Shown: positions 2 to 47,438 of the stretch, piece after piece
How the letters are laid out: the number at the start of each line of letters is the position of its first letter
Numbering within the stretch: position 1 is the stretch's first letter
Assembly (NCBI GenBank): GCA_020353195.1
Contig: CP070691.1
Location: 2,579,105 to 2,643,104 of the forward strand
Source: Phycisphaerales bacterium
GTDB taxonomy: Bacteria; Planctomycetota; Phycisphaerae; UBA1845
DNA length: 64,000 bases
Direction: 5' to 3'
Program-made: the position numbers and the translations under genes
The notes under the pieces: model-generated
What the model was told of the DNA's origin: nothing
The model's database searches: none
What the model saw: only the letters and a program-made list of their open reading frames with translations

Positions 2-1822
2 ACGGCTACAGTCGCCGGATCGCAACTTCCGGGTCTACCGGGTTCGACGGCGGAGCCGGCCAAGATCGTCCATTTCCGCGTGTCGGGTCCGCTGCTGGAG
101 CGTCCCGCGGGTGAGACGCTGATGTTGACGCTGGAACAGCCGCTCACGCTGCAGGAGCTGATCGCGCGGATGAAGAAGGCGCGAGACGACGAGTCGGTCA
201 AGGCCGTCGTGCTCACCTTCCGGCAGCCGTCGATGGGGTTCGCCCAACTGCAGGAGCTTCGACAGGCGATCATGCAGATCCGGGCGGTGGACAAGGACGT
301 GTACGTGCATGCCGACATGCTGTCCACCGGGCTGTATGCGCTGGCGTGCTCCGCCTCGCATGTCAGCATAGTGCCGACGGGCGACGTGTGGCTGATGGGG
401 CTGTACGGCGAGCAGCCGTACCTGCGGGGACTGCTCGACAAGATCGGCGTCGTGCCGGACTTCATCCAGATGGGCGATTACAAGAGCGCGGCCGAAATCC
501 TCACGCGCACGGGCCCGAGCGAACCGGCCGACGAAATGCTGACCTGGCTGCTCGACTCCCTGTATGGCAGCTTGGTGTCGATGATTGCGGAGTCTCGGGG
601 CATGACGCCGGAGAAGGTGAAGGAGATCATCGACACCGGTCCGCACACGGCCGAGAAAGCCCTTGAAGTCGGGCTGATCGACTCGGTGCAACACCGGCAG
701 GATTTCGTGGGGCACCTGAAGGAGCGCTACGGCGCAGCGACGAAGATCGTCCGCCGATACGGCGAGGACAAAGGCCCGGAAATCGACTTCTCGAACCCCC
801 TTATGGCCATCTGGGATCTGATCGCGGAAGTGACGAAGAAGGCCAAGAAGCCGACCAAGCCGGTTGTGGCGGTGGTGTACGTGGACGGCCCGATCCTCGT
901 CGGGTCGGAGGACCCGAGTCCGTTCGGGGCTTCGGGGCAGGCCCGCAGCACGACGATCCGCAAGGCGCTGGACAAGGCGAGGAAAGATTCGGCGGTCAAG
1001 GCGGTCGTGCTGCGCGTGGATTCGCCAGGGGGATCGGCGCTGGCGAGCGAGATCATCTGGGACGCCACGCAACGGGTGAAGGAGCAGAAGCCGCTCATCG
1101 CGTCGATGGGCAACGTTGCCGCCAGCGGCGGGTATTACGTCTCCTGCGGGGCCGACGCGATCTACGCGGACGAAACCACGATCACGGCGTCGATCGGAGT
1201 GATCGGGGGCAAGCTTGTCACGACCGGGATGTGGAACAAGCTCGGTGTGTCCTGGCACGCAAGGCAGCGCGGCAAGAACGCAGATCTGCTGAACACGTCG
1301 CGACCGTTCGCCGAGAAAGACCGCAAGAAGATCACCGAGTACATGGAAAACGTCTACACCGTGTTCAGGTCGCACGTGACGGCGGGACGCGGCGAGAAGC
1401 TCTCCAAGCCGCTGGACGAAATGGCCGGCGGGCGCGTCTATACGGGCGCTCAGGCGCTGGAGCTCGGGCTGGTCGACAAGATCGGGACGTTGGATGACGC
1501 GGTGAAGTTCGCCGCCGCCAAGGCGAACGTCAGCGACTACGAAATCCGCGTGCTGCCCGAGCCGAAGAAGCTGATGGACGTGTTCATGGAGATGTTCGCG
1601 GGCGACGACGACGAGGAAGAGGATATCACCCTGGACGGCCCGAGTTCGTGCCGCGTGAACCTCTTTGCGGAGAAGTCGCCCCTGGTCGACACTCTCCTGC
1701 CGCTGCTGCGAGAGCTGGACCCGATGCGAACGCAGGCTCTGCTGACCGCCCTGACGCGGCTGCAACTGATTCACGAAGAGGGCGTCATCACCATGATGCC
1801 ATACGATTTCGTGATCCGGTAG
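2..1822 (+). CDS. sppA: Signal peptide peptidase SppA (67K type, two S49/ClpP-fold halves). The 5' end probably runs off the window.
   Basis: The frame is open from nt 2, and the listed ORF start at 80 is GTG. The second half carries 'LRVDSPGGSALASE' and 'SMGNVAASGGYYVSCGADAIYADETTITASIGVIGGK', which are typical SppA motifs. Confidence 0.8.
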   Translation, partial: TATVAGSQLPGLPGSTAEPAKIVHFRVSGPLLERPAGETLMLTLEQPLTLQELIARMKKARDDESVKAVVLTFRQPSMGFAQLQELRQAIMQIRAVDKDVYVHADMLSTGLYALACSASHVSIVPTGDVWLMGLYGEQPYLRGLLDKIGVVPDFIQMGDYKSAAEILTRTGPSEPADEMLTWLLDSLYGSLVSMIAESRGMTPEKVKEIIDTGPHTAEKALEVGLIDSVQHRQDFVGHLKERYGAATKIVRRYGEDKGPEIDFSNPLMAIWDLIAEVTKKAKKPTKPVVAVVYVDGPILVGSEDPSPFGASGQARSTTIRKALDKARKDSAVKAVVLRVDSPGGSALASEIIWDATQRVKEQKPLIASMGNVAASGGYYVSCGADAIYADETTITASIGVIGGKLVTTGMWNKLGVSWHARQRGKNADLLNTSRPFAEKDRKKITEYMENVYTVFRSHVTAGRGEKLSKPLDEMAGGRVYTGAQALELGLVDKIGTLDDAVKFAAAKANVSDYEIRVLPEPKKLMDVFMEMFAGDDDEEEDITLDGPSSCRVNLFAEKSPLVDTLLPLLRELDPMRTQALLTALTRLQLIHEEGVITMMPYDFVIR

Positions 1823-2034
1823 AACCCGGATAGGCACAGGTCCTTATCCCGAGATATCGTTGACGACTCCGGCACCGCCCGTCCGCCGGCAGCGGTTGCC
1901 ACTTGCCAAGCATGGCAGTGGGGCATAGAGTGCCTGTGGGGCGGCGTTGCGGCCCGTACCCGGCAGCGCGGGGCTCGAGGCCCACGCTGGGAGCCCTCTG
2001 GCGGTCGATATTCGGATGTGGAGGTCAACGGATC

Positions 2035-2676
2035 ATGGTTACCGCGCGAGGTAAGATCGGGCTGGCGTGTCTGTCGGCGGCGCTATGCTTCGCCCTGGTG
2101 GTGATAGCGGAGCCTCGACTTGCACCGCCGGCCGACGAAAGCACGAAGCCAACAACACCACCGGCGAACGACGCTGAGCCCGAGGCGGCGCCCCAGGAGC
2201 CACCGACGGAGGCCGACCAACCGGCGGTCAAACCGGACCAACCCCCCGCCGACGGCACACCGCCGTCAGCACCGTCGGCGGAGGAGGTGATCAAGGCGTT
2301 TGAACAGGACCGCCCGAGAAACGTGGCCATCCCTCCGGTGAGCACGACCGCCGCGGCTGCGAAGCCGGCGGACCAAGAAGGTAAGAGGCCTCCGACGCGG
2401 TATCCCGACGGTTATCTGCTCATCGATCGGGCCGGTCGTGTGCGCCAGGACGGTCAGTGGTGGACCTTCGTCTTCGAGTCGGACAGCCCGTCGTTCGAGG
2501 AGCCACCGATGAAGCTCCTTCCCAACAGGATGCTCGAACGTGCGGTGTTCGAGGTGCGGGGCGCGCCGAACATCGTATTCATCGTGTCCGGGGAGATCAC
2601 CGATTATCAGGGTGAGAATTTCATGCTTCTTCGCAAGCTGCTTCGGCGGCGGGATCTGGGAAACCTCAAGAAGTAG
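2035..2676 (+). CDS. Hypothetical secreted protein with a Pro/Ala-rich linker and a C-terminal globular domain
   Basis: ATG 2035 gives the signal-like N-terminus 'MVTARGKIGLACLSAALCFALVVIA'. GGAGG lies about 11 nt upstream. I recognise no family. Confidence 0.5.
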   Translation: MVTARGKIGLACLSAALCFALVVIAEPRLAPPADESTKPTTPPANDAEPEAAPQEPPTEADQPAVKPDQPPADGTPPSAPSAEEVIKAFEQDRPRNVAIPPVSTTAAAAKPADQEGKRPPTRYPDGYLLIDRAGRVRQDGQWWTFVFESDSPSFEEPPMKLLPNRMLERAVFEVRGAPNIVFIVSGEITDYQGENFMLLRKLLRRRDLGNLKK

Positions 2677-2725
2677 GCACACCTGCGGCTGCCTTGACCG
2701 GCGGCCCCGATGCGGACGTTTGCCC

Positions 2726-3070
2726 ATGGAGCTTCGAATCGACAGTTCAGGACCCTATCCGGTCGCCCGGATCTGGGGAGAAATCCGGTCCGAGGACGCC
2801 CCCACGTTCGTGGAGGAGATCCACCCCCTGGTGGCGCAGTCGGATTCAAAGCTGGCGATTGACCTGTCCGGTGTTTCGTTTCTGGACTCGACCGGTCTCG
2901 CCTCGCTGATCAACGTCGTCACCCGCGCGCGGTTGGCCTCCGGACGGACCATCCTCGTATCGCCGACGCCGTTCGTCGCGGGCGTATTCGACGTGACCAA
3001 CCTCGATCAGTGGTTCGAGATCGCGGGCGATCTCGATGAAGCCGCGAAGTACTTCTCCGCGGGCGATTGA
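2726..3070 (+). CDS. STAS-domain protein (SpoIIAA/RsbV-type anti-sigma-factor antagonist)
   Basis: ATG 2726. 'LAIDLSGVSFLDSTGLASLINV' is the STAS phospho-serine loop (DSxG). Confidence 0.75.
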   Translation: MELRIDSSGPYPVARIWGEIRSEDAPTFVEEIHPLVAQSDSKLAIDLSGVSFLDSTGLASLINVVTRARLASGRTILVSPTPFVAGVFDVTNLDQWFEIAGDLDEAAKYFSAGD

Positions 3071-3128
3071 AACGGGCCGGATGACCCACCACGGCCGCGG
3101 CCCGGACGGGCCACCCGGGAACAAACGC

Positions 3129-3164
3129 CGCCAACGGCATGGAACGGTTCCGCGTTCGTTGGCG
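3129..3164. terminator. Hairpin between the convergent STAS and kinase genes; possible intrinsic terminator for the minus-strand operon
   Basis: CGCCAACG (3129-3136) pairs with CGTTGGCG (3157-3164). The loop contains the palindrome GGAACGGTTCC. On the minus strand the stem is followed by CGTTTGTT. Confidence 0.35.
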
Positions 3165-3227
3165 CGCTGCTCGGGCTGTTCATTACTCTGACGCCCGGGT
3201 CTGTGGGGCCGTCCGGCGGTGTGAAGG

Positions 3228-4121
3228 TCACGCGCTTCTCGCCCGGTGCCCCTCGGCGCGGTCAACGAGCTTCTCCACCACGTCGCACGTCTGTCTGATT
3301 TCGCCGGCCGTAAGCCGATAGCACGACGCTCCCCGGACGACGCCGGCCAGCACGTCCAGCCCGACGGCCCGGCAGCGCAGCAGGTTGAAGCAGAACCGGT
3401 GCAGCTCAAACGCGGCTTCGGCCCGGCTGATAGGTACCAGCGCGGGTCTGGCATTCCGCGCGTACTTCGGGAAGACGACATAGCGGATGGGGCAGGCGCG
3501 GCCGACCACGTCGGGCCTGACCGACGTCGGCTTGATGAAACCCACAAGCCCCTTGGCGGCTTTGACGTAGTGCCGGTTTCCGTGCACGGCGAGTCCGAGT
3601 GACTCGATGATGGGATGGGAAGCCCGCTTGATGCAGATGGCCCGGGGATACGGCTGCAGCTGGAGGGTCTTGGCGTGAATCAGCGCAAACTCGTCGCAGA
3701 GGTACCGCCATCCGCGAGCAAGCAGACCGGCGGTCAGCGTGGACTTGCCCACGCCTGACAGACCCGGCAAGATCACGCCTTGCCCGTCGATTTCCAACGC
3801 GGACGAATGAAGCTGAAGGCTCTGGGGCATGACCCGCGGGATCTGCAGGTTCAGCGACCACTCGACGTAGGGCAGGACTTCCTGGAACCTTGTGGGCTCG
3901 AAGTGCACGAACCCGTCGGCCGACACCTGGTATCGCCGGCGATGGCGCGCCGACAGCGGGGTCCGGCCGACCATGATCCGAATTTCCCCCTCACCGGGCC
4001 GGTCGGTCTGGAACTCGCGGTACAGGGACGTGTACTCGTCCAGAAGACGGGGCATGGACGTGGTCAGCGAGGCGTGAATGACGCCGATCCGGAAGTGCCT
4101 TGTACGCAGTTCGGGCTTCAT
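3228..4121 (-). CDS. HPr-kinase-related protein (P-loop C-terminal-domain type, 'HprK-related kinase A/B' class)
   Basis: Walker A 'GLSGVGKSTLTAGLLARG' followed by 'YLCDEFALI'. There is no HprK N-terminal domain. ATG 4121 lies 18 nt downstream of the stop of the upstream PqqD-fusion gene on the same strand. Confidence 0.7.
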   Translation of the reverse strand: MKPELRTRHFRIGVIHASLTTSMPRLLDEYTSLYREFQTDRPGEGEIRIMVGRTPLSARHRRRYQVSADGFVHFEPTRFQEVLPYVEWSLNLQIPRVMPQSLQLHSSALEIDGQGVILPGLSGVGKSTLTAGLLARGWRYLCDEFALIHAKTLQLQPYPRAICIKRASHPIIESLGLAVHGNRHYVKAAKGLVGFIKPTSVRPDVVGRACPIRYVVFPKYARNARPALVPISRAEAAFELHRFCFNLLRCRAVGLDVLAGVVRGASCYRLTAGEIRQTCDVVEKLVDRAEGHRARSA

Positions 4122-4139
4122 AGCGGGCGTCTTGTCGGC

Positions 4140-5966
4140 TCACTCTTCGCGCGTGGTCAGCCCCAGCTGGTCAAACTCGGCGATCATGCGCCGGACCTGG
4201 TTCATCGCGTCCGCCGCCGAGACGTCGTAGGTTTCAGCGAGGGCTTCGCCGATCTGAGCGGGGTCCGTCAAGCCGTCGCACCGGCGCCAGATGAACAGCG
4301 CAGTCTGGTTCAATCGATGCGTGTCGCCCGTCTCGGGGTCATAGATCAGCGCCTCATCGTCCAGCTCGTGAACGATCAGGTTCTTGGATCGGGTGGGGGT
4401 GCGTTCGCCGGCGGGGACGGGCGGCGGCTGATCAGGCTGGGAGGCGGACGCCGGGGCCGGTAGGTCCTGATCCGGGGTCCGCCCCGCAGGGGCGGCAGTG
4501 GCTGCCGCGTCGAGGTCGGCGGCATTCAGCACGCTACTGGGCGAGAGATTGTCTGGCGTCATGATCACCTCCTCCGGCCCGTGGTCCCAGTCATCATCAG
4601 AAGGTCCTGTCAGAAACATGGGTGTCACCGGGGGCAGTCCGGGGGCTTCCGGCACGTCGTTCAGGTTGGCGGCGATGGCCCTCCAGAACACGGAGCTATC
4701 CACACAGAGGTCCGGGACGCGTCGTCCGTTCAGGAACACCGTCGGCGTGGTGGTGACGCCGAGTCGTCTGGCCAGCGCCACGTCGCTCTGGACCGCTCGC
4801 CGGACGGCGTCGCTTTCCATGTCCGCCAGAAGTCGGTCGGCGTTCAGCCCGGATTGTCGGGCGAGCGCGGCGTAGTCCCAGTTGGGTCTGTCCTTGCGGT
4901 GCTCGAACAACAGGCGGTGCATTTCGTCGAACGCTCGTTGCCCGCCCTGGAGGCGCGCGGCCTCAGCCGCCAGACTGGCCGACGACACTGGCAGGTCCGG
5001 CACGGTAGGCTGCTCGGAAGCGCGATCGGTATCTTCGGCGGCGGCGGCAGGAAGATGCCGGATGTCCAAAGACAACTCGTCGCCGAAGACCTCGTTGATC
5101 ACGCGCTGGCGGCGCCGCTCGAAACACGCGCACCCGGCGCAGTCGTAATCGGTGAACACAACGATGACGACCCGGTCGGCATCGCCGGTAGCCGGCAAGG
5201 CCCGTACGTTCGAATCGCGCTGGGGGATGTACACGGTCGGCTGGGCGTAGTACTCGCGAAGAACAAAATCAGCGTCTCGCTGCAGAGCCGCCACCGCCTG
5301 CTTGATGCCGAAGGCTTTGCGCCACTGGCGGCGAGCCTCCGTCACGGCATTGAAGTAGAACCACATGCCGAGGCACGCGACACAGCATGCGGCAAAGGCG
5401 CAGGCACTGAGGCGCCGCTGGATGCGCGCGACCACCGGCGGATCGGTCAGCCCGCTGGACGTACGGCGCACGGATCTCGATCGCGACACACGCCGCAGGA
5501 TGAGCACGGTGAGAACGATGCCTGCGTTCAAACCGTTGGCCAGGGCGCAAAGCGGGCACCAACTGTCGACGGCCAACAGCATGATCGTCAGGAAGAAGAT
5601 CGAACCGATCAGCCCGCTGAATACGACCAGCAGCACCAGGCGCCACGTCCGCCGAGACCAGGCCGGCACCCGCCCCACCATGGTGAACCAGATGGCCACG
5701 CTGGTGAAGTAGGCCAGCCCCATCAGCGACGTGGGGACGACGAAACGACGCGTGCCGAAGTGGAAGTCGAACGAACCCCACCGGCTGTCCGCGACACCGG
5801 TGCAACTCGCGCTGGCAAAGATCTGGGATTCACAAAGCCGCAGGAGGAAGCTGGTCCCTTCGCCGGTAGCCTGCCAGCCGCCGTCGTGTTCGACCAGCAG
5901 TGTGCCCGACACCCAGGCGCCGCCGACCGCGAGAGCCACGATTGTAAAGACAAGAAATCGAACCAT
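4140..5966 (-). CDS. Fusion protein: VKOR membrane domain + DsbA/thioredoxin domain + Pro-rich linker + C-terminal PqqD (RRE) domain
   Basis: Start re-picked at ATG 5966 ('MVRFLVFTIVALAVGGAWVSG'). Five hydrophobic segments. VKOR loop Cys pair 'LCESQIFASASC' and TM CxxC 'WCPLC'. Thioredoxin 'FTDYDCAGCACF'. The last 81 aa, 'KNLIVHELDDEALIYDPETGDTHRLNQTALFIWRRCDG...IAEFDQLGL', are PqqD-like. Confidence 0.75.
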   Translation of the reverse strand: MVRFLVFTIVALAVGGAWVSGTLLVEHDGGWQATGEGTSFLLRLCESQIFASASCTGVADSRWGSFDFHFGTRRFVVPTSLMGLAYFTSVAIWFTMVGRVPAWSRRTWRLVLLVVFSGLIGSIFFLTIMLLAVDSWCPLCALANGLNAGIVLTVLILRRVSRSRSVRRTSSGLTDPPVVARIQRRLSACAFAACCVACLGMWFYFNAVTEARRQWRKAFGIKQAVAALQRDADFVLREYYAQPTVYIPQRDSNVRALPATGDADRVVIVVFTDYDCAGCACFERRRQRVINEVFGDELSLDIRHLPAAAAEDTDRASEQPTVPDLPVSSASLAAEAARLQGGQRAFDEMHRLLFEHRKDRPNWDYAALARQSGLNADRLLADMESDAVRRAVQSDVALARRLGVTTTPTVFLNGRRVPDLCVDSSVFWRAIAANLNDVPEAPGLPPVTPMFLTGPSDDDWDHGPEEVIMTPDNLSPSSVLNAADLDAAATAAPAGRTPDQDLPAPASASQPDQPPPVPAGERTPTRSKNLIVHELDDEALIYDPETGDTHRLNQTALFIWRRCDGLTDPAQIGEALAETYDVSAADAMNQVRRMIAEFDQLGLTTREE

Positions 5967-6472
5967 GTTCCTGGCCTGTGGAAATCCCGGGACCCTGTCG
6001 CAGATCGGCACCGCATGGCGCCGTCTCGCACCGGCGGGGACGCAAGCACCGACTCCCGGCATCCACCGCTGGACCTTCGCCGCTTCCCGGACGGCCTGGC
6101 GCGCCCTGGGGCGTCAGCTCGACGCTGATGCAGCGCTCTGTAGGCTCCGCGGGGCGTTTACTACACGGACCTTCCCATGTATCGGGCTTCTCGGGGGCGA
6201 GATGAAGTTGGCTCCGGATGGCCAGGGATTCGAGTGATGGCATCTGGCCCGGCAGCATGGCCCCGTCCGGCTGGCGTCCTGGCCAAGCTGCTCTCCGGGG
6301 GGGTGCCGCCGTGCCTTCGCCGGCCAGGCCGCCCGCTGCCGCTCATGGCGGCAGCCTGGTAGCGGCTCCGGGAAGCGGGCCTGGTGATACTGGTATCCGC
6401 TGCTTCGGGGCCGACCCACCTCGAGGGCTGCCGAAACCGCAGTTGCCCGCCCGCGTGACCGATAACCACCAT

Positions 6473-7609
6473 ATGAGTGGGTCACAGACTCCCCAATCCC
6501 TGCTGGCGATGTGCCTTGCCGGACGGGTGGCTGACGTTCCGAAGAGCGTCGATTGGCTTCATCTGGCCGACGGTGCCGGGAGCCTGGGCCTGTCGGGCCT
6601 GGTTCTCGAAGCGTTGGATCGGGCAGGCCTCCGCGTTCACGAGACGGCCTATCTGGCCCTGCGGGAGCAATCGACCGTAGTGGCCGGTCAGAACGCGCAC
6701 ATCACGCGCTGTTTCAAACCGATCGCCCGGGCGTTCGACGCCGCGGGGATTCCTCTTCTGCTGCTCAAAGGCGCGGCGCTGGGCTTGACGGTCTACCGCG
6801 AGCCGCGGCTGCGCCCGATGTCCGACGTGGACTGCATGGTGCGGTGCGAGCATCTGGACCAGGTCTGCGCCCTGCTCAAGCGTCTCGGTTGTCGGCGCGG
6901 CGCAGACCTGGTCCGGAGGGATTTTTTCCCGAGATACTTCAACGAGGTGGAGTACTTCACGCCTGATCGACGGTCCGTCCGGATCGATCTTCACGTTCGC
7001 CCCTTTCGGCCCTTACGGTATGCGCAGACCGTCCCGGCCGACGCGTTCTGGCGCGGTGCCGTACCGGCCGATCTGGGCGGCGCCGTCGCTTTGATGCCGA
7101 ACCCGAGCGATATGGTGATTCACCTGGCTGTCCATGCCGCCGTACACGGCGCGCGCCGCCCGCTCTGGCTGTACGACATTTACCGGTTCGCTCACGTTCA
7201 CCGCGACACGCTGGATTGGACGGCGGTGATCGAGCAGGCCGACGCCTGGCGACTGGTCTTGCCCCTCCGGGTCGCGCTGCAGCGGGTCGACGCGATGTTC
7301 GGACCGGCGGTGCCGCCGGACGTGATCGCGACACTGGACCGCCGGCGCGTGGGCCTGGCGGACCGGCTGACGCTGTGGCATGCCCCTCGGGACGAGGCGC
7401 ATCCGATGGGCCACCTGCTGGTGGACTTGTTGTGCACCCGCGGCTGGCGGTTCCGGCTTGGCTACCTGGCGGCAGTGCTTCTGCCGGGGCGGCCTCATCT
7501 CGAGTCGATCTACGCGGGGCGTCATCCGGGGTGGACGCTCTGCGCCCACGCGTGCCGAGTCATGCGCGCCATACGCCGGGCGCTGGGCCTGCGCGTCGAC
7601 ACGGCCTGA
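6473..7609 (+). CDS. Uncharacterised nucleotidyltransferase family protein (NTP_transf_5 / PF14907-like)
   Basis: ATG 6473 ('MSGSQTPQSLL'). 'IPLLLLKGAALGLTVYREPRLRPMSDVDCMVRCEHLDQVCALLKRLG' matches the family signature. Confidence 0.7.
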   Translation: MSGSQTPQSLLAMCLAGRVADVPKSVDWLHLADGAGSLGLSGLVLEALDRAGLRVHETAYLALREQSTVVAGQNAHITRCFKPIARAFDAAGIPLLLLKGAALGLTVYREPRLRPMSDVDCMVRCEHLDQVCALLKRLGCRRGADLVRRDFFPRYFNEVEYFTPDRRSVRIDLHVRPFRPLRYAQTVPADAFWRGAVPADLGGAVALMPNPSDMVIHLAVHAAVHGARRPLWLYDIYRFAHVHRDTLDWTAVIEQADAWRLVLPLRVALQRVDAMFGPAVPPDVIATLDRRRVGLADRLTLWHAPRDEAHPMGHLLVDLLCTRGWRFRLGYLAAVLLPGRPHLESIYAGRHPGWTLCAHACRVMRAIRRALGLRVDTA

Positions 7610-7805: not shown

Positions 7806-8909
7806 CTAATCCACCATATCCCAGGCTACGCGGGTATCGGCGGGGATCGGTACGACGGCGCGTCGTCCGATCAGTTGTGCCATCTCGTCCGGGCTGATGC
7901 CGCCGGAGGGTCGTTTGGCGGTCAATATGTCGCGGTCCAGAACGTCGCCGGGGCGGACGTCGCGGGTAACGACAATGCTCTTGCGGCAGCCGTCGCGGAC
8001 CGGCTCTTCCGAAGCATGCATGGACAGTTCGCCATCGCCCAGGGCCTCTTCCGCCCGGCGCACCCTCGTGATGTACTCGGCCATGGCGTCGGGCGCAAGC
8101 GACAGCGCGTGGTCGGGGCCCGGCAGCGTGTCGTCCAGCGTGAAGTGCTTTTCGAGCAGGCATGCGCCGGCGGCGACGGCGAGGGCCCCCGTCTCGACAG
8201 AGCAAGTGTGGTCGCTGAATCCGGTGGGGCGACCGAAGCGTTCGCGCAGCGCTGCGATCCGGTGCAGGTTCGCATCCTCCCAGGCGGTGGGGTAGGCGCT
8301 GACACAATGCAGAAGAATGAGCCGTTCCCGACATCCCAGTTCGGTCAACCGGTTCACGGTCCGCTCGAGTTCGTGTGCAAGGGACGCCCCGGTCGACAGG
8401 ATGACCGGGAGGTTCGCGCGGGCCACTTCCTCCAGCAACGGATGGTTGTTCAAGTCGGTCGAGGCGATCTTGATGGCCCGCACGCCAAGGCCCGTAAGAA
8501 GGTGAAGGTCCGTGATCCCGAACGGCGTGGCCAGTAACTCGATCCCGCTCGCGCGGCAGTGTTCGCACAGAACCGAGAAATCATCGCGACCGAGTTCGAG
8601 CTGCCGGAGCATCTCCCGTTGACAGAGGTCACCCGTGGCGTTTCTCTGGTAGTCGACGGTGGCGGCGTCGGCGGTGACCAGGTCGGCCGCGCGAAAGGCC
8701 TGGAACTTGACCGCATCAGCGCCGGTGCCGAGCGCGGCGTCGACCAGTTGGACAGCGGTGTTGAGATCCCCGTTGTGATTGACCCCGGCTTCGGCGACAA
8801 CGTATACGCGCCGCCCCGGGCCTACGGATGTGGCGCCGATGGTCACCGGCGACGGGCGCTCCGCGGGCGCCGGAGCGAATCCTGTCTGTTGTCGGGAAAC
8901 CGGTCTCAT
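7806..8909 (-). CDS. Nonulosonic-acid synthase family (NeuB/PseI/LegI-like) with a C-terminal SAF domain
   Basis: 'VYVVAEAGVNHNGDLNTAVQLVDAALGTGADAVKFQ' plus a C-terminal 'VVTRDVRPGDVLDRDILTAKRP' SAF-like segment. ATG at 8909. Confidence 0.8.
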   Translation of the reverse strand: MRPVSRQQTGFAPAPAERPSPVTIGATSVGPGRRVYVVAEAGVNHNGDLNTAVQLVDAALGTGADAVKFQAFRAADLVTADAATVDYQRNATGDLCQREMLRQLELGRDDFSVLCEHCRASGIELLATPFGITDLHLLTGLGVRAIKIASTDLNNHPLLEEVARANLPVILSTGASLAHELERTVNRLTELGCRERLILLHCVSAYPTAWEDANLHRIAALRERFGRPTGFSDHTCSVETGALAVAAGACLLEKHFTLDDTLPGPDHALSLAPDAMAEYITRVRRAEEALGDGELSMHASEEPVRDGCRKSIVVTRDVRPGDVLDRDILTAKRPSGGISPDEMAQLIGRRAVVPIPADTRVAWDMVD

Positions 8910-9298: not shown

Positions 9299-11668
9299 TC
9301 AACTTGCCCGAACGGGCAACGTGAACTGAAACGTCGCACCGAATCGATCGTTGGGTCTGGCGGACAGGCAGCCGCGGTGGGCGTCAAGGATGGTCTTGCT
9401 GATGGAAAGCCCCAGCCCCGTGCCGTCCGATTTGGTCGTGAAGAACGGTTCGAACAGATGCTCGGACACGCCCGGTGAGAACCCCTCGCCGGTGTCCGTA
9501 ACCGTCACCTCCACCGCGTCCTTTCCGTGCCTGGCCGTTGTGACGCACAGTTCCCGCCGGCGCCCTTCGATGTGTTTCATCGCGTCGATCGCGTTGTGAA
9601 AGAGGTTCAGAAGCACCTGCTGAATCTGAATCTTGTCGACCTCGATGGGCGGAATCCCCGGCTCGGGCTCGAATCGGGTGTGAACGTTGTGCATCCGGGC
9701 CGCGTATTCCTCAAACTCGATCGCTTCTTGGATGACGGCGTTGAGGTCCACCGGCGCCATGCGCGGTTCCTGCCTGCGAGAGAACTCGCGGACGCGACGG
9801 ACGACGTCGGCCGCACGCTCCGACTGGCCGGCGATTTGCCTGACGGCCCCCAGCAACTCCTCAGTGGTGACGGTCTCCGATTCAATGCGGCGCAGGCAGG
9901 CCTCGGTGTAATTGTTGATGGCGGCCAACGGCTGATTGAGCTCATGGGCCAACTCGGTGGCCATCTCGCCCACCGTGCCGAGCCGGGCCAGGCGGCAGAA
10001 TTCCGCCTGCCGCTCGCGCGCCAGGGCGTCGGCCTGTTTTCGCTCCGTGGCGTCGCGGATGACGGCAAGAACGAACCTCTCCTTCGCGCTCCGGCCCGCG
10101 GAGAGAGACAGCTCTATAGGGAACACATTGCCGTCACTGCGCAACGCCGGCCGCTCAACGGTCTTGCCGATCACCCGACGGGACTCACCTGTAGCGAAGA
10201 AGCTCTTCACGAATTGCCGGTGTGGTTCGCGATAGTCCTCGGGCATCAGAACGTCCAGCGGCTGGCCGATCATCTCCTTCGCTTGGCGGCCGAACATCTC
10301 CTCGGCCGCAGGGTTGAACAGTGTTACCAGCCCCTGGGAATTGACGGCGACCATCGCGTCTTTGCTCGCGTGCACGACAGTGCGGAACCGCTCTTCGCTG
10401 CTCCGCAGCGCCTCTTCCGCCCGCCTCTTTTCGGTGACGTCTCTATGGCTCGCCATATGTGCGATGACGTTCCCCGCATCATCCACCACTCTTGATGAGC
10501 ATACCGCAACCGGAAAGAGATCACCGTTCTTCCTCTTGCCGATGAGCTCTCCTGACCAACCGCCTCTCACCGTGTCCTCAAGCGCCTGTTCCACTTCCCG
10601 TGTCTGTTCTTCGGGGTGCAGGGAGGCGATACTTTTGCCAATCATCTCTTCTCTTGAATACCCGAACATTTTGGCAAATGCTTCGTTCACATAGGTGATC
10701 CTGCTTTCAAGATCACCCATGGCCATTCCCTCGATCGAATTGTCAACCGCTTGCGCGAATAGCCTCAGTTTCTCCTCTGCCCGCTTGCTATCGGTGATGT
10801 CCCGGTTTACGGCAACAGTACCGATGCGGTTGCCTTTGCCATCAAGGACCGGAACGACAATCGTCTCGCAGACGCCCTCCGTCCCGTCCTTGCGGACGAA
10901 ACGAATATCGCCGCTCCACCGGTTCTCGCTGCGGAGCCCGTCTTGAACGGCCCGGGTCAGGGCGGCGGCTTCGGCGGGGCCATTCAGGACGTCCGGGCTC
11001 TTGCCCAGGATTTCCTCCTTCGCATAGCCGAACATGCGCTGCGCGCCGGGGTTCCAGTCGATGATCCGGCCATCAGCGCCGATCAGCAGCACGCCGTCGT
11101 GGATGCTCTTGAAAACCATCGCCTGGCGCCGCAGCGCGCGCTCGGCCCGTGCACGGTCCGCGACCGACCCGGCCCGTCTGACGAACAGGCCGGCGACGAG
11201 AACAGCGGCAGCCAGAATGCAGGCCCCTGCCACCGTGGCGAACCAGCCCGTGCGCCACGACGACGGCACGACCGACAACGCCGCCCCGATCACGTTCGGG
11301 CTTCTGAGCCCACGCGCATCGACACACCGCGCCGGGCAGGCGCCGCGCCCCGGCCCAAGCGCATCCGTGTCGATTCCGGCCCGTGACGTGAATTCTCCGA
11401 AGCCCTGGCAAACGTCGCGAATGATGACGCCTTGCGGATGGTCGAAGCGAGCCACCGGACCGCCGGCGCCACGCGCGGGGCACGCCCCCCAGAAGACGAG
11501 GAAGACCACGCAGAGGCTGATACAGTGAGTTCCTTTGAACGCGGACGGCTGCCCCGTGACCGGCCCGGGCACGGCTTCGCCGCCCACATGGATGCGAAAC
11601 GCGCGCGCACGGGGTGACGTGGATTCCGCACGGGCACGAAAGGTGGCGTTGATCTCAGTGAACTGCAT
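9299..11668 (-). CDS. Membrane sensor histidine kinase with three PAS domains (FixL-like architecture)
   Basis: Two N-terminal TM segments, then three PAS-like repeats ('GRIIDWNPGAQRMFGY', 'ITYVNEAFAKMFGY', 'VTLFNPAAEEMFG'). HisKA 'ELAHELNQPL' and HATPase 'DTGEGF...GTGLGLSI'. Confidence 0.85.
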   Translation of the reverse strand: MQFTEINATFRARAESTSPRARAFRIHVGGEAVPGPVTGQPSAFKGTHCISLCVVFLVFWGACPARGAGGPVARFDHPQGVIIRDVCQGFGEFTSRAGIDTDALGPGRGACPARCVDARGLRSPNVIGAALSVVPSSWRTGWFATVAGACILAAAVLVAGLFVRRAGSVADRARAERALRRQAMVFKSIHDGVLLIGADGRIIDWNPGAQRMFGYAKEEILGKSPDVLNGPAEAAALTRAVQDGLRSENRWSGDIRFVRKDGTEGVCETIVVPVLDGKGNRIGTVAVNRDITDSKRAEEKLRLFAQAVDNSIEGMAMGDLESRITYVNEAFAKMFGYSREEMIGKSIASLHPEEQTREVEQALEDTVRGGWSGELIGKRKNGDLFPVAVCSSRVVDDAGNVIAHMASHRDVTEKRRAEEALRSSEERFRTVVHASKDAMVAVNSQGLVTLFNPAAEEMFGRQAKEMIGQPLDVLMPEDYREPHRQFVKSFFATGESRRVIGKTVERPALRSDGNVFPIELSLSAGRSAKERFVLAVIRDATERKQADALARERQAEFCRLARLGTVGEMATELAHELNQPLAAINNYTEACLRRIESETVTTEELLGAVRQIAGQSERAADVVRRVREFSRRQEPRMAPVDLNAVIQEAIEFEEYAARMHNVHTRFEPEPGIPPIEVDKIQIQQVLLNLFHNAIDAMKHIEGRRRELCVTTARHGKDAVEVTVTDTGEGFSPGVSEHLFEPFFTTKSDGTGLGLSISKTILDAHRGCLSARPNDRFGATFQFTLPVRAS

Positions 11669-43511: not shown

Positions 43512-45194
43512 ATGGCGGATCCACCCTCGACGACCATACGATCGCCCGGTGCGGGCCCGGTTCGTGACCTTCCCGGGGTGGCCCGGCGCGTCCTGATCAT
43601 CGGCTTGGACGGCGCCACCTTCGACGTGCTCGACCCGATGATTCAGCGGGGGCGCATGCCTCGGCTGAAGGCGTTTCTGGCGGGCGGAACGTCCGGGATT
43701 CTGCGCTCGACCATACCCCCGATCACGCCGGCGGCCTGGACCACCTTCATGACCGGCAAGGGTCCCGGCACCCACGGCATCATTGACTTCGAGCGGTACG
43801 ACGCACGGGCCAACCGCCTGACCCTCAACACGACCAACTGCCTCAGACACGTACGGACGATCTGGCAGATTGTCGGCGACAAGGGCTTCGGTGTGGGATG
43901 CGTGAGCATCCCCATGACCTATCCGCCGACGGCGGTCAACGGATTCATGATCAGCGGGTTCGGCACGCCGGATCGCGACAGCGAGTTCACGTATCCGGCC
44001 GCCCTGAAGGACGAGGTCCTGCGGGTCTGCCCGGACTACGGCTTCGGGAGCAAGTGGCGGCGTAGGATGTTCGGCGGCGACGCGCTGCTCCGCGAGAACT
44101 TGGCTGCGGTCAAACGCAGCTTCCATCACGGTTACGAGTTGGCCTGCCATTGTGGCGAGCGGTTCGGATGGGACGTGCTGATGGTCGTTCTCAAGCTCGT
44201 GGACAACCTGCAGCATAAGACGTGGAGGTACCTCGATCCCCGATGGGCACCGCGCTGTCCGAAACGGGCGGAGATGGTGGCGGACTGCTTCGCCGACCTG
44301 GACGAGGCCTTCGGCCGACTGGTGGACTACGCCGGGCGAAACGACGCGCTGGTGTTTGTCATGTCCGACCACGGTCACGGCAGTCTGGAGGGCCAGGCCC
44401 AGCCCAACCTGCTGCTCAGGCAGTGGGGCTGCCTGGGCGTCAAACCGGGCGCCCAGTCGGCGGCCCGCGGGCGTCGCCTGCTGCGTCGCCTGACGAACAG
44501 GAAGCGAAGCCGGTTCACGGAGGGCCGCATCGGCATCGAGCAGGATCTGGCTATCGACATGAACCGGACGCAGGCGTGCGTCATGCACGCGGGGATGTCC
44601 GGGTTCCTTTACATCAACTTGGCGGGCCGGCAGCGCACGGGCACTGTCCCGCCCGACCAGTATGAGCCTCTGCGCAACGACCTGCGGCGCCGGTTTCTCG
44701 AGGTTACGGACGTCGAGCCGGGCGGCCGAACCGTCCGCGTCTTCCAGGAGGTCCACAAGCCCGAGGAGTTGTACGGCTGCTCGCGCGACGGACGGGAGTG
44801 GCTGCCGGACCTGCTGCTGGTTCCCCGCGACGGTCTGGCCGTGATCCGCAGGATCCGCACGTCGACGCCGGTGCGCTGGTTTCCCGTGCGCCGCATCGAG
44901 GGCACGCATCGTCGGGAGGGCATGTTCGCCGTCGCCGGGCCGGGGATTGCCCGCGGCAGAACCGTGGATGCGGACATCGTCGACTCGACGCCGACGATCC
45001 TGGCCATGCTGGGCCTGCGGATCCCCGACGACATGGAAGGGCGCGTGATCGAGGGCCTGTTCGATCCACCAATCCACTTCGAGTTCGAGAAGGCAGCGCC
45101 TGCCGGTGACGCGGGACCGGCCGACGAGGTCTATTCCGACCACGAGCTACAGAAGGTAACCGAGCGCCTTATTGACTTGGGTTACCTGCAGTAG
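43512..45194 (+). CDS. Alkaline-phosphatase superfamily protein (type I phosphodiesterase / nucleotide pyrophosphatase-like)
   Basis: 'RVLIIGLDGATFDVLDPM...RSTIPPITPAAWTTFMTGKGPGTHGI', 'VFVMSDHGH', and the family-typical C-terminus 'RLIDLGYLQ'. Confidence 0.7.
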   Translation: MADPPSTTIRSPGAGPVRDLPGVARRVLIIGLDGATFDVLDPMIQRGRMPRLKAFLAGGTSGILRSTIPPITPAAWTTFMTGKGPGTHGIIDFERYDARANRLTLNTTNCLRHVRTIWQIVGDKGFGVGCVSIPMTYPPTAVNGFMISGFGTPDRDSEFTYPAALKDEVLRVCPDYGFGSKWRRRMFGGDALLRENLAAVKRSFHHGYELACHCGERFGWDVLMVVLKLVDNLQHKTWRYLDPRWAPRCPKRAEMVADCFADLDEAFGRLVDYAGRNDALVFVMSDHGHGSLEGQAQPNLLLRQWGCLGVKPGAQSAARGRRLLRRLTNRKRSRFTEGRIGIEQDLAIDMNRTQACVMHAGMSGFLYINLAGRQRTGTVPPDQYEPLRNDLRRRFLEVTDVEPGGRTVRVFQEVHKPEELYGCSRDGREWLPDLLLVPRDGLAVIRRIRTSTPVRWFPVRRIEGTHRREGMFAVAGPGIARGRTVDADIVDSTPTILAMLGLRIPDDMEGRVIEGLFDPPIHFEFEKAAPAGDAGPADEVYSDHELQKVTERLIDLGYLQ

Positions 45195-46644
45195 ACGGCG
45201 GTGCGTTCCTGGGTTGTTGCCTGCTTCGGGACTGCCGGGCCAGCAGCTGCTTGTACCGAGACGCCAACGTCTTCCAGAAGTGGAGCTGCTCTCGGGCCAC
45301 GGACGGTATCTGTCTTCCTCCGACGAACGCCGACGGTGTCGCCTTGACGCCGAGATCGTGGCCGAGTTCGATGTCCTCAGCGATTCGCTCTGCGACGGCG
45401 TCCGACTTCATGTCCGTCACGAACCGGTCCGGGTCAAGTTCCAACCGCGCCGCGACCTTGCGGAAGTCGATGGTGTCCAGAATGTCCTTCTTCGCACTCC
45501 CCAGCTTGAACAACAGGTCGTGCGCTTTCCAGAAGGCTTCGTTGCCGCCCTGGAGCCGGGCGGCCTCGGCGGCCCTGGCGGCCTGGCAGGCAAACGCGTG
45601 GTACTCGGGCTTGATGTACGGGTTGCACAGGTTGCTTTGCGGGAAGTGCTTGAACACGATTTTCAGGCGGTTGTCGAACAGCGGATTGAACCTCTCCTCC
45701 AGCGAACGGGCAAACTTGCGGCAATGCCCGCACTGAAACTCGCTGAACACGATCACGGGCAGCAGACGCTTGCCGTCCGGGGGCTGCTTTATGGGATCAT
45801 CGGGGCGGATGATGACCCTGTCTTCCTCGCTGCTTCGCCCGGGCCGGTCGCCCTCCTGGCTGTCTCCTTCCTGCACGATCAGCCTGTTGTGTTTGAAGAG
45901 AACCTCGTTCACGTCGTACATTCGTACGAGAGACTGGGCGTCTTCCGTGAACGGCTTGAGCGTCTCGCTGCACTTGTCGTACTTGGCCAGACTGTCCGCC
46001 AGCTTCGGACGCATGACGGCCGCCGCCGTACCCTGCCACAGCCACGCCCCGCCGATCAGGGCCATCAGCAGGACTGCCAGCACCAGCCGCAGCGTCGGAT
46101 GCGAAGCCCCCGCCGGCGCGTCCGCCGCCGGCGTCCCGCTTGCCGACTGCGAGACCGTGTGCGCGGAGGTCGCCACGGCGGTCACCGGGGGGCGCCGAGG
46201 CCAGAACAGCACCGTCAGGATCAGGATCGTGAAGCTGATCGCGTGGCTGACCATGCACCAGAAGCAGCGATAGTCCAGCCGCGTGTACATGATCACAATA
46301 AAGAACACCGCCCCCGCCGCACCGCCGAGCGTGGCCAGACTGGGCAACAGATGATAGACGCGTCGGTCGAACGACGGTTGCCCGATGAACAGGAACCACA
46401 GTCCCAAGCCCATGAAGTAGGACAACCCCCAGTATGCGGTGGGCATCCCCCAGACTGTGCCCCACTCGGTCCTGGCGACCTGCTCGCAGGCGGAGACACC
46501 TTCCTGCTCGGTCGGCCCGCATGCGGCGTCAAACCAGGCGGGCGGTGACGCCTTGGGCAGGTGCTCCCGCAACAGCAGGCTGGACACCCACATCCCCGCG
46601 ATACAGAGGGCCACCAGGGCGACGTTGTGCACTGTTCGTAGCAT
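45169..46644 (-). CDS. VKOR-DsbA/thioredoxin fusion protein (disulfide-bond formation); paralog of 4140-5966 without a PqqD domain
   Basis: ATG 46644 ('MLRTVHNVALVALCIAGMWVSSLLLREH'). Loop Cys pair 'ACGPTEQEGVSAC', TM 'CFWC', thioredoxin 'FSEFQCGHCRKF'. Confidence 0.75.
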   Translation of the reverse strand: MLRTVHNVALVALCIAGMWVSSLLLREHLPKASPPAWFDAACGPTEQEGVSACEQVARTEWGTVWGMPTAYWGLSYFMGLGLWFLFIGQPSFDRRVYHLLPSLATLGGAAGAVFFIVIMYTRLDYRCFWCMVSHAISFTILILTVLFWPRRPPVTAVATSAHTVSQSASGTPAADAPAGASHPTLRLVLAVLLMALIGGAWLWQGTAAAVMRPKLADSLAKYDKCSETLKPFTEDAQSLVRMYDVNEVLFKHNRLIVQEGDSQEGDRPGRSSEEDRVIIRPDDPIKQPPDGKRLLPVIVFSEFQCGHCRKFARSLEERFNPLFDNRLKIVFKHFPQSNLCNPYIKPEYHAFACQAARAAEAARLQGGNEAFWKAHDLLFKLGSAKKDILDTIDFRKVAARLELDPDRFVTDMKSDAVAERIAEDIELGHDLGVKATPSAFVGGRQIPSVAREQLHFWKTLASRYKQLLARQSRSRQQPRNAPPSTAGNPSQ

Positions 46645-46733
46645 CGGCGGAGTTTTCCCCAGTTCCAAACCGGCATCGGCGCCGCAAGGCGCCCCCATAT
46701 GACGAGTGCGACGCGGCGGGAGCGCAGTCCGGC

Positions 46734-47438
46734 TCAAATCGGTCGCACGTGCAGGCGGGCCTCAAGGTGCCGCCGGACCAGTCGGTAACCGCGAGCGTAC
46801 CGGCTGTCGCCCACCAGCGCGATCAGCAGGGCCAGTGCCGGATACCCCAGGAACCGCACGTAGGACAGCACTTCGTGCAGGGGTTCGTCAAAGTCGGGGG
46901 AGAAGTCCTCGAGTTCGGCAAACGTCAGGAACACGCCGGGGATCTGCACGCCGCTGAGCCATCGCCCCCACGGAAACAACAGCGCCAACAAGACCAGCAT
47001 CCAGAAGAAGGCGGACAGACTGCCCCGCACACCGCCCAATCCACCGGCCAGGCAGATTTGCCCGGACGCCAGGAAGCAGAGCGCCAGCAGCGCGCAACTC
47101 GCCTGCCCGATGAACTCCGCGAGCGGTAGGAGCGTTTGCAGCAGGGTGCCCATATACTTCGCGTCAGCCGCGTTCTGGGCGTTCTCCGGTTCACCGGTGG
47201 CGATGACTGACACGTCAGACGACGCGATCTCCTCTTCCGCGGCGTCCACGACCGTCAGTATGTGGCCCCACCGAACGGCACAGAACGCGGCCACGTGCAC
47301 GAGAAGGGACAGGGTCAGCAGCACGAGGAAGACGCCCCGGGCGGACCGGACGGTCCGCAGCGCGGCCTCATAATCGCGAAACATCGCCTGTTCCTCCGCG
47401 GTCGGCTTTCCCTCCCTGCCGGCCAATCCCGTGTTCAT
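46734..47438 (-). CDS. Hypothetical polytopic membrane protein
   Basis: ATG 47438 forms an ATGA overlap with the hemL stop. Several hydrophobic segments. The upstream part of the 533-aa track ORF is a shadow of hemL. Confidence 0.5.
   Translation of the reverse strand: MNTGLAGREGKPTAEEQAMFRDYEAALRTVRSARGVFLVLLTLSLLVHVAAFCAVRWGHILTVVDAAEEEIASSDVSVIATGEPENAQNAADAKYMGTLLQTLLPLAEFIGQASCALLALCFLASGQICLAGGLGGVRGSLSAFFWMLVLLALLFPWGRWLSGVQIPGVFLTFAELEDFSPDFDEPLHEVLSYVRFLGYPALALLIALVGDSRYARGYRLVRRHLEARLHVRPI

Follow-up and report, generated by a model that had tools for sequence, protein, structure and literature searches.

Five-transmembrane (TM) VKOR-Trx proteins replace DsbB/DsbA. The gene analyzed here, at positions 4140 to 5966 on the minus strand of a 64,000-nucleotide stretch of the genome of a Phycisphaerales bacterium (the whole stretch is referred to below as the window), encodes a protein of this type whose reading frame continues into PqqD, a recognition element (RRE) for peptides that are made on ribosomes and then modified after translation (RiPPs). 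The parts brought together at this locus, namely VKOR-Trx, the PqqD RRE, the HPr-rel-A pair, tailoring by HprK and an NTP transferase, precursors with signal peptides, and internal starts, are individually of already known kinds. The sublancin/glycocin clusters have dedicated BdbA/BdbB proteins, which are thought to form the disulfides of the product (PMC6405829). In the case of pseudomycoidin, the HprK-type kinase PsmK phosphorylates a serine, and the NTP transferase PsmN then adds a hexose (PMC6993621). Bufferins are made from RiPP precursors with a Sec signal, which undergo modification in the cytoplasm before their export to the periplasm, and the authors of that work noted that bulky modifications would make peptides poor Sec substrates (PMC11626156). 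In arcB, an internal start yields a separate C-terminal protein (bioRxiv 10.1101/520783).

Comparative analysis of the locus led to an explanation that we consider probable: the gene consists of merged genes of a peptide-maturing operon, an internal start supplies free PqqD to the kinase encoded downstream, and the VKOR-DsbA part oxidizes the exported peptide. The best reading of the fusion itself is an evolutionarily accidental read-through merger of two adjacent, translationally coupled genes rather than a designed machine, and the operon behind the fusion is a more interesting result than the fusion.

On the minus strand, positions 4140 to 6062 form a single open frame, a 640-residue open reading frame (ORF) in a genome of 65% GC. 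The start of the fused gene was set by the MVRFLVF of the orthologues, which places it at the ATG at 5966 and gives a gene of 608 codons. Its features were as follows.

4140 to 5966, minus strand: fused ORF, comprising VKOR, TM5, DsbA-like domain, linker and PqqD; stop codon TGA at 4140-4142
5442 to 5966, minus strand: VKOR four-helix core, residues 1-175 (Pfam VKOR, hydropathy, conserved cysteines)
5832-5834 and 5802-5804, minus strand: VKOR loop cysteines C45 and C55
5547-5558, minus strand: VKOR CPLC motif, C137-C140
5349 to 5411, minus strand: fifth TM helix, residues 186-206 (hydropathy; unbroken helix 177-230 in the AlphaFold2 model)
4647 to 5234, minus strand: DsbA-like thioredoxin-fold domain, residues 245-440 (Pfam Thioredoxin_4, DSBA and Thioredoxin_5; Foldseek; phmmer against the PDB)
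5130-5141, minus strand: DsbA active site C276-A-G-C279, with C281 and C421 as further conserved cysteines
4401 to 4646, minus strand: junction and Pro/Ala/Asp-rich linker (about 84 residues; residues 441-522), predicted to be disordered, with no hydrophobic segment
4143 to 4400, minus strand: PqqD/RRE domain, residues 523-608 (Pfam PqqD, E = 2e-15; TIGR04353; AlphaFold2 fold)

An earlier note on this DNA, made from the letters alone, had claimed that VKOR, a DsbA-type thioredoxin and PqqD are joined in one frame, and this was confirmed as a real finding that goes beyond chance. The ORF is open throughout, and every domain matched its model above the cut-off: Pfam VKOR (PF07884) at 57.2 bits against 27.5, over residues 40-184 of the 640-residue ORF, Thioredoxin_4 at 47.4 bits against 23.2, DSBA at 42.7 against 25.6, and PqqD (PF05402) at 57.2 against 23.4. 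The C-terminal domain also matched NCBIfam TIGR04353, 'HPr-rel-A system PqqD family peptide chaperone', at 39.6 bits against a cut-off of 35, and was modeled with a strand-then-helix fold, so that its identification as PqqD stood. All of the motifs quoted in that note were found in the sequence. In the translation they are LCESQIFASASC (C45/C55), WCPLC (C137/C140) and DYDCAGC, which extends to DYDCAGCAC (C276/C279/C281); C45/C55 and C137-P-L-C140 were conserved at 90% or above in 57 homologues. The linker contains 18 prolines, 13 alanines and 10 aspartates.

The DsbA active site of the fusion reads C-A-G-C-A-C, in which C281 was conserved at 90% or above in the 57 homologues, above the first two cysteines; the homologue P0010 has C-A-C only. 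C421, in a DLC motif, was invariant in set A1 (10 sequences, comprising all of the seven fused proteins together with three unfused close relatives) and below the 90% level in the 57-homologue set. C281 and C421 may form a second structural disulfide or belong to an unusual active site. On the opposite strand, an ORF of 515 residues (4581-6128, plus strand) overlaps the fusion gene. It is probably a high-GC artefact, because the minus-strand gene has strong domain matches and conserved orthologues, and it shows that length alone means little in a 65% GC genome.

TM segments were called by Kyte-Doolittle hydropathy with a 19-residue window and a threshold of 1.6. Four segments of the protein exceeded the threshold and TM2 (SLMGLAYFTSVAIWFTMVG) lay just below it; since TM2 exceeds the threshold in orthologues, there are five TM segments overall, and the five hydrophobic helices described earlier were thus borne out. 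The loops after TM2 (GRVPAWSRRTWR) and TM4 (RRVSRSRSVRRTSS...RIQRRLS) are strongly positive, and the loop cysteines and both CxxC motifs are on the opposite side from these loops. By topology rules, TM5 takes the chain from the arginine-rich cytoplasmic loop to the periplasm. A sixth TM helix or re-entrant segment after DsbA was ruled out: in six fused orthologues the hydropathy after this domain peaked at 0.45-1.05, compared with 1.65-2.8 in the TM segments above the threshold, and the linker was modeled as disordered. In the AlphaFold2 model, built on the 57 homologues, the predicted local distance difference test score (pLDDT) was mostly above 90 for VKOR, TM5 and DsbA and below 50 for residues 449-524, the disordered linker, and residues 524-606 formed strands (531-552) and then three helices (554-600) with a pLDDT of 67-87. 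The CAGC motif was at the N-terminus of a helix (277-297). Foldseek placed DsbA and BdbD at the top for the thioredoxin part, with a probability of 1.00 and a TM-score of about 0.65 on the target, and in a phmmer search of the PDB residues 531-603 matched the lasso-peptide RRE TfuB1 (6jx3_B, E = 0.006).

The predicted N-in/C-out topology with five TM helices puts DsbA and the fused PqqD of the full-length protein in the periplasm, because DsbA faces out and no sixth TM helix follows. The kinase encoded next to the fusion is predicted to be cytoplasmic, because it has a P-loop and lacks a signal peptide. The topological conflict between a PqqD outside the cytoplasm and a kinase inside it, which the earlier note had raised, is therefore genuine, and is best resolved by internal initiation.

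Survey of the orthologues showed nine distinct sequences with the fused frame (the window, L007, L001, L004, L008, L009, L012, L013, and L016 with L024; L denotes related loci), which share 55-82% identity and come from at least 12 independent assemblies from different projects. Assembly or sequencing error was thereby ruled out as the origin of the fusion, and a hidden stop or frameshift between DsbA and PqqD, which had been named as a possibility, was not supported. Between the window and L007, at a synonymous divergence (dS) of about 0.3-0.4, the ratio of non-synonymous to synonymous divergence (dN/dS) was 0.14 for VKOR, 0.22 for DsbA, 0.34 for PqqD, 0.79 for the linker and 0.16 for the kinase. 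All fused domains are under purifying selection between these two loci.

About 15 further Phycisphaerae loci have this VKOR-DsbA unfused, with its own PqqD gene after it in another frame. In eleven unfused loci, PqqD was a separate ORF in a different frame immediately 3' of VKOR-DsbA. The PqqD start overlaps the VKOR-DsbA stop as ATGA (-4) in L017, L020 and L026, falls within the upstream gene by 8 or 11 nt in L021, L027 and L028, and lies 11-25 nt downstream of the stop in L018, L019, L025 and L037; in L057 a single in-frame stop separates VKOR-DsbA and PqqD. In several of these loci the Shine-Dalgarno (SD) sequence of PqqD is embedded in the 3' end of VKOR-DsbA (GGAGGTGA in L020, GGAGGT in L021, and GGAGG in L027 and L028). 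In a neighbor-joining tree the fused clade was monophyletic and nested among the unfused loci. The comparison shows that two genes, with PqqD separate, were the ancestral state, and a single lineage-specific event, the loss of one stop, is the likeliest origin of the fusion because the fused clade is monophyletic and nested in this way. In the window, the junction that follows the conserved TPMFLTG is 14 codons long and ends in GGAGGAGGTGATC-ATG-ACG, in which ATGA is still contained. An exhaustive search with the 140-residue C-terminal part gave 128 clusters at E<1e-10. Among the best 150 matches listed, the PqqD representatives were almost all stand-alone proteins of 80-170 residues, and the fused clade was represented by one entry and one DsbA-PqqD fragment. 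A metagenome scan for further fused lineages found only five loci and no new subclade.

To place the fusion in its operon, the related loci were searched, on stop-to-stop segments, with our own hidden Markov models (HMMs) for five components. VKOR-DsbA, PqqD, an HprK-related kinase and an NTP_transf_5 nucleotidyltransferase were found together in about 25 Phycisphaerae loci, and the ancestral operon order was precursor, VKOR-DsbA, PqqD, HprK-related kinase A, NTP_transf_5. In the window, the remaining parts of this system were the following.

3228 to 4121, minus strand: HprK-related kinase A, 297 residues, P-loop GLSGVGKST, no signal peptide (TIGR04352, Pfam Hpr_kinase_C)
5967 to 6472, no strand assigned: divergent intergenic region, 506 bp, with no recognizable precursor in the window or L007
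6473 to 7609, plus strand: NTP_transf_5 nucleotidyltransferase, divergently oriented (Pfam PF14907, 160 bits; own HMM match from 6473)

The kinase ATG is 18 nt after the fusion stop and has no SD of its own, so the kinase must be translationally coupled to the fusion; in relatives the PqqD-family gene and the kinase gene overlap or abut. Kinase homologues formed 256 clusters, and the 120 listed were from Planctomycetes wherever a name was given. The likely start of the NTP_transf_5 gene is 6473, not 6218, and its orthologues have 373-396 residues. In the neighbor-joining tree, the cluster-linked VKOR-DsbA proteins formed their own clade, which excluded both unlinked copies and a paralogue from the window, and the VKOR-DsbA of the fusion is for this reason regarded as a dedicated paralogue. 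The paralogue from the window is a second VKOR and DsbA-like gene (45172-46761, minus strand; Pfam VKOR 70 bits, DSBA 50 bits), which, because it is outside the cluster-linked clade, is probably a housekeeping disulfide oxidase.

No lasso cyclase (Asn-synthetase-like) or transglutaminase-like leader peptidase was found among the called genes flanking nine related loci, nor among the operon neighbors that were scanned in the window, where most genes elsewhere were not scanned. The operon is not a lasso cluster. The idea that a disulfide-forming machine is coupled to a peptide-recognition element thus held at the level of the operon, where the coupling is widespread in Phycisphaerae, and not for the fusion as a designed unit. 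As to its novelty, dedicated oxidoreductases have a precedent in BdbA/BdbB of the sublancin cluster (PMC6405829), and the VKOR-DsbA-PqqD fusion itself was not found in the literature. Nothing was found there on VKOR with RiPPs or PqqD, on 'HprK-related kinase', on VKOR-DsbA as a fixed cluster member, or on the six-cysteine precursor family described next.

Most related operons hold a small ORF, usually in first place, and about 20 of the related loci have a precursor gene. The arginine pair, one proline, one alanine and six cysteines were invariant in all 12 aligned precursors. These proteins begin with [ST]RRx[FVL][LV] and a hydrophobic stretch, followed by an AxA site and a core of 30-40 residues with six cysteines spaced C-C-CC-C-C, as in ...SRRELVRGGIRLVFIAPVLSTFFAHDAHA|AGSRHSCYPTGHACPGAEPCCNGPCAVNVCP. 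The N-terminal part has the features of a twin-arginine (Tat) signal, several members matching SRRxFL exactly, and the AxA site precedes the Cys-rich core. A profile search yielded 73 clusters, all annotated as 'hypothetical protein' or nameless, and no Pfam or NCBIfam model matched the precursors above threshold. The C-C-CC-C-C spacing is that of knottins, and there were sub-threshold matches to Pfam Toxin_12 and Toxin_35 and precomputed PF07740 matches for several members. In five of the six other fused lineages for which the region was available, the precursor gene lies between NTP_transf_5 and the fusion.

Several loci showed variations on the precursor. The L031 core (7107-7442, plus strand) is doubled, containing some 13 cysteines and a pair of CC motifs, like tandem knottin-like units, and P0219 is similar (P denotes homologous proteins). 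Two precursor-like ORFs are present both in L003 (7837-8004, 10848-11054) and in L014 (9807-9974, 12870-13067): a six-cysteine ORF between NTP_transf_5 and PqqD, and a degenerate-looking one just upstream of VKOR-DsbA, which has two cysteines and a poor signal and overlaps the VKOR start. At the expected precursor site of L019 (about 9671-9874) there is a masked run of N, and only the C-terminal CCPGLTCLGTVGSKTCQ is readable.

The distribution of PqqD in the related systems argues for a cytoplasmic role. The stand-alone PqqD proteins, taken from the most plausible start (an SD-backed ATG where present), had 97-128 residues, and all were without a signal peptide. In P0259 (157 residues) and in L031 (6690-7442, plus strand), PqqD is fused N-terminally to the twin-arginine signal and Cys-rich core of the precursor, and P0259 has no internal Met between the PqqD and precursor parts. 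In this fusion the RRE would be joined in cis to the substrate, and the predicted arrangement places PqqD on the cytoplasmic side. PqqD is assigned a cytoplasmic role because the stand-alone proteins lack signals and because of the domain order in P0259 and L031, and the adjacency to an ATP-using kinase agrees with this. All of this argues that the periplasmic PqqD copy of the full-length fusion is not the form around which the pathway was built. PqqD was also seen in other company. P0375 (329 residues) has a Plug domain of TonB-dependent receptors and a C-terminal PqqD, and may be another extracytoplasmic PqqD context or a gene-calling merger; P0391 (769 residues) combines a sulfotransferase, GT2 and two PqqD domains.

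The earlier note had proposed that a strong SD before an in-frame ATG at 4562 could release free PqqD. The SD and ATG are present, in the stretch GGAGGAGGTGATCATG (4560-4575, minus strand), with GAGGAGGTG as the SD element, and a GGAGG also precedes the true starts of tsaD (51274) and of the ORF at 17672. The elements of the putative internal start are listed here.

4565 to 4575, minus strand: SD-like GGAGGAGGTGA, an 8-nt match to the anti-SD complement, with its GGAGG core 5 nt before the ATG
4560 to 4562, minus strand: internal in-frame ATG, codon 469, candidate start of a 140-residue PqqD; homologue of the ancestral start, with 'ATGA' kept
4563 to 4682, minus strand: synonymous trough, codons 429-468 (40 codons), putative internal initiation region
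4617-4619, minus strand: second candidate start, ATG450, with a weak GGTGA five bases upstream, inside the same trough

Of the nine fused sequences, five kept the ATG at the ancestral PqqD start. At the homologous 'MT' position an SD-like motif accompanies the ATG in L007 (AGGAG), L001 (GGAGG) and L008 (GGAG), and L012 keeps the ATG (ATGAC) with AGGTGA as its only SD-like run, which ends 1 nt before it and is too close. The L004-type subclade has an alternative conserved island, GEH[DG]-ATG-DP with GGAG upstream, whose product would have 103 residues, the size of a stand-alone PqqD. In every pair compared, the 40-codon stretch with the least synonymous divergence in the whole gene fell in the junction/linker. 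Between the window and L007 this trough was at codons 429-468, directly upstream of ATG469 (102 of 5000 permutations reached the observed value); between L004 and L009 (codons 505-544; 5 of 5000) and between L004 and L013 (codons 492-532; 15 of 5000) it spanned the alternative ATG. Across the window, six of the seven in-frame sense-strand sites of the form GGAGG-N4-9-ATG were true gene starts (tsaD, an ATP-binding cassette permease, a periplasmic binding protein, a PAP2 protein and two others, the ORF at 17672 being included among the six), and the seventh was the internal site. The fusion's own start at 5966 is preceded only by a weak AGGA. No internal sigma-70-type promoter was found in 3100-6600, a negative that is limited by the possibility that planctomycete promoters differ, and no known RNA family was found in the window (Rfam). 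The idea of internal initiation is strengthened because the ATG is at the ancestral PqqD start, the motif recurs, and the 40 upstream codons are the most synonymously conserved, and a free cytoplasmic PqqD of 140 residues is most likely still made from this start.

In the cytoplasm, PqqD would bind the precursor as an RRE, as the known role of the family suggests, and hand it to the HprK-like kinase, which depends on ATP, and to the nucleotidyltransferase; these two enzymes would modify it by a chemistry that we infer by analogy with PsmK and PsmN. The precursor, as its signal predicts, would be exported through the twin-arginine route and then cleaved, and the quinone-linked VKOR-DsbA would form three disulfides in the periplasm, a step suggested by the topology and the six invariant cysteines. 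In the clade of the window, loss of the VKOR-DsbA stop would have carried the frame through a short junction into PqqD, and the old PqqD ribosome-binding site and ATG469 (possibly ATG450) would survive inside the fused frame. Initiation there would give the free 140-residue PqqD, the partner of the kinase, and initiation at 5966 would give the full-length protein, in which a disordered tether holds a copy of PqqD in the periplasm; this copy may be inert or of some help in substrate capture.

Several observations weigh against internal initiation, or against the fusion being a mere merger. The homologous Met is absent from L004, L009, L013 and L024, four of the nine fused sequences. The synonymous troughs are accompanied by many non-synonymous changes and could be due to something else, for instance another frame or an RNA element. 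Sites of the form GGAGG-N4-9-ATG occur in the window at chance frequency (14 observed, 14.5 expected), and the SD and ATG were therefore rejected as significant by themselves, their weight coming only from position, conservation and the synonymous trough. An acidic linker (EE) is naturally encoded by GAGGAG. The RNA around the internal ATG is poorly structured (z = +2.2), but a sliding scan found three or four equally open windows in the fusion gene, so that a uniquely open mRNA at this start was rejected and its openness was counted as weak support. The kinase scored 177.1 bits with TIGR04352, below the curated cut-off of 200, although this model was its best match by more than 140 bits and aligned over its full length (2-280 of 280). 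The proposal of a free PqqD thus gained comparative support from the ancestral start, the recurrence of the motif and the synonymous trough, and we infer the use of the internal start from this evidence, which supports it and does not prove it.

The same facts bear on the possibility that only the full-length protein matters, with a periplasmic PqqD, tethered to DsbA, capturing the exported peptide (for example by its conserved mature N-terminus AGSRHSCYPxGHxC) and holding it at the active site, and with the kinase and nucleotidyltransferase acting without an RRE. The loss of the internal Met speaks for this, as does a frame that has been kept across the clade down to 55% identity. Three junction indels (12, 9 and 12 nt) were inferred upstream of ATG469, all of them multiples of three, and none of the nine fused sequences has reverted to separate genes, a hint of selection on the full-length fusion itself. 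Purifying selection still acts on PqqD (dN/dS 0.34 and 0.08), and the linker has expanded to 47-139 residues in the fused lineages only, against 20-30-residue N-terminal tails in stand-alone PqqD proteins, as expected for a functional tether. However, all other members of the system have either a signal-less cytoplasmic PqqD or one on the cytoplasmic side of the precursor signal, PqqD stays translationally coupled to a cytoplasmic kinase, the SD, ATG and synonymous trough would go unexplained, and an extracytoplasmic RRE was not found in the literature searched. We regard this alternative as unlikely, yet one to be taken seriously. It is also doubtful, to a slightly greater degree, that the full-length protein functions as an RRE-tethered, substrate-specific oxidative-folding machine for Tat-exported, knottin-like modified peptides, with two starts supplying the RRE on both sides of the membrane; if it did, the functional full-length fusion would be the first RRE working outside the cytoplasm.

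The absence of a precursor raises another question. No precursor gene was recognizable in the 64-kb window or in L007, with nothing better than E=0.6, in a search by tblastn, by reading in three frames, by two HMMs run with filters off, by blastn with the orthologous intergenic regions, and by a regular expression for an RR signal with at least four cysteines, and none of the 73 precursor clusters was represented among the called proteins of the 3.79-Mb contig of the window genome. This would fit a decaying remnant, in which the precursor is gone, neutral read-through leads toward a pseudogene, and neither PqqD form is functional. Against such decay, dN/dS was 0.14-0.34 for VKOR, DsbA, PqqD and the kinase, every gene is full length and intact, and the window and L007 both lack an adjacent precursor yet keep the enzymes, which points to a substrate elsewhere or one too divergent. 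Because the enzymes are under purifying selection, a substrate of the window system probably exists, encoded elsewhere or too divergent to recognize, and decay is improbable. Far less probable still is an artefact or misread topology, in which an error removed a stop or frameshift, or a hidden sixth pass returns PqqD to the cytoplasm. No evidence for this was found, beyond the general fact that high-GC genomes give long spurious frames such as the antisense ORF; the recurrence of the fused frame in independent assemblies, the low hydropathy after DsbA and the helix-free, disordered linker of the model all stand against it.

If merged genes with a surviving internal start are the correct explanation, the comparative data give the Phycisphaerae version of the HPr-rel-A system a candidate substrate and a logic, in which a six-cysteine twin-arginine peptide would be modified, exported and oxidized. 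This would be a testable new family of bacterial cysteine-rich modified peptides, and a rare case of a ribosomal-peptide pathway extending across the membrane and having a disulfide machine dedicated to it. The fusion would be a clean natural example of overlapping, translationally coupled genes merging, in which an old start can survive within the frame that results, and a single gene may then have products on both sides of the membrane. It is also a warning for annotation, since domain architecture read from a single long ORF can mislead on topology.

Between the window and L007 (an 82% relative), the intergenic region at 5967-6472 has 74% identity. It contains blocks nearly identical to L007, for example CCGGAGCCAACTTCATCTCGCCCCCGAGAAGCCCGA at about 6165-6215 on the minus strand, with no conserved ORF, and these may be a regulatory or 5' untranslated element or the remains of a lost precursor gene; no Rfam match was found in 5900-6520. 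Beside the kinase gene, a STAS-domain protein and an unannotated, secreted-looking protein (about 200-257 residues) are syntenic in the fused clade, at these positions.

Window, 80-3070, plus strand: STAS/secreted-protein synteny
L001, 13097-16337: the same synteny
L004, 10937-11992: the same synteny
L009, 10892-14023: the same synteny

An S49 peptidase joins this group in the window, L001 and L009, and was not called in L004. The NTP_transf_5 gene is flanked in the window by a NeuB-like gene (7806-8909, minus strand), which resembles NeuB-family sialic/pseudaminic acid synthases and scored below both NCBIfam equivalog cut-offs, and by a triple-PAS histidine kinase (9299-11668, minus strand); orthologous fused loci have chorismate synthase at this position.

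Comparison with the known systems showed likeness to each in part. As in arcB, an in-frame SD and ATG within the gene of a membrane protein would set free a soluble C-terminal domain in the cytoplasm; in the window the two products would be on opposite sides of the membrane, and the start, which is predicted from sequence, would be the relic of a separate gene. Bufferins share the classical export signal on the precursor, in place of a leader or in addition to one, an RRE-containing partner protein and a periplasmic product, but are made by MNIO/DUF2063 enzymes from precursors with a Sec signal, as opposed to the twin-arginine type found here, and without a dedicated disulfide oxidase. The sublancin cluster is likewise a peptide-modification cluster with its own membrane oxidase and thioredoxin-like partner, but its oxidase is of the DsbB type, not the VKOR type, and it has a Gram-positive host, no RRE fusion and other tailoring chemistry. 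The paeninodin and pseudomycoidin modules (PadeK/PsmK and PsmN; PMC6993621) have, like the Phycisphaerae loci, an HPr-kinase homologue, an uncharacterized enzyme of a nucleotidyltransferase family and a PqqD-type RRE acting on a ribosomal peptide. In contrast to these lasso modules, no cyclase or leader peptidase was called beside the loci examined, and the precursors lack a terminal serine and have export signals and six cysteines.

The fusion shares with five-TM VKOR-Trx proteins, of which the gene at 45172-46761 is an ordinary example, the four-helix core, the loop cysteine pair, the CxxC of TM4, and a TM5 followed by an extracytoplasmic thioredoxin fold. It differs in that its clade is always linked to a peptide-modification operon, in the extra C-terminal PqqD of the window's lineage, and in a thioredoxin part that is DsbA-like, with a helical insert and the active site C-x-x-C-A-C. 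The closest named system is HPr-rel-A (TIGR04352 and TIGR04353), for which no paper naming a substrate was found in the literature. The PqqD passes the cut-off of this system, the kinase has its best match there (177 against a curated cut-off of 200), the two genes are adjacent and coupled, and JGI gives the orthologues this name. In Phycisphaerae this pair is joined by VKOR-DsbA, NTP_transf_5 and a twin-arginine precursor with six cysteines.

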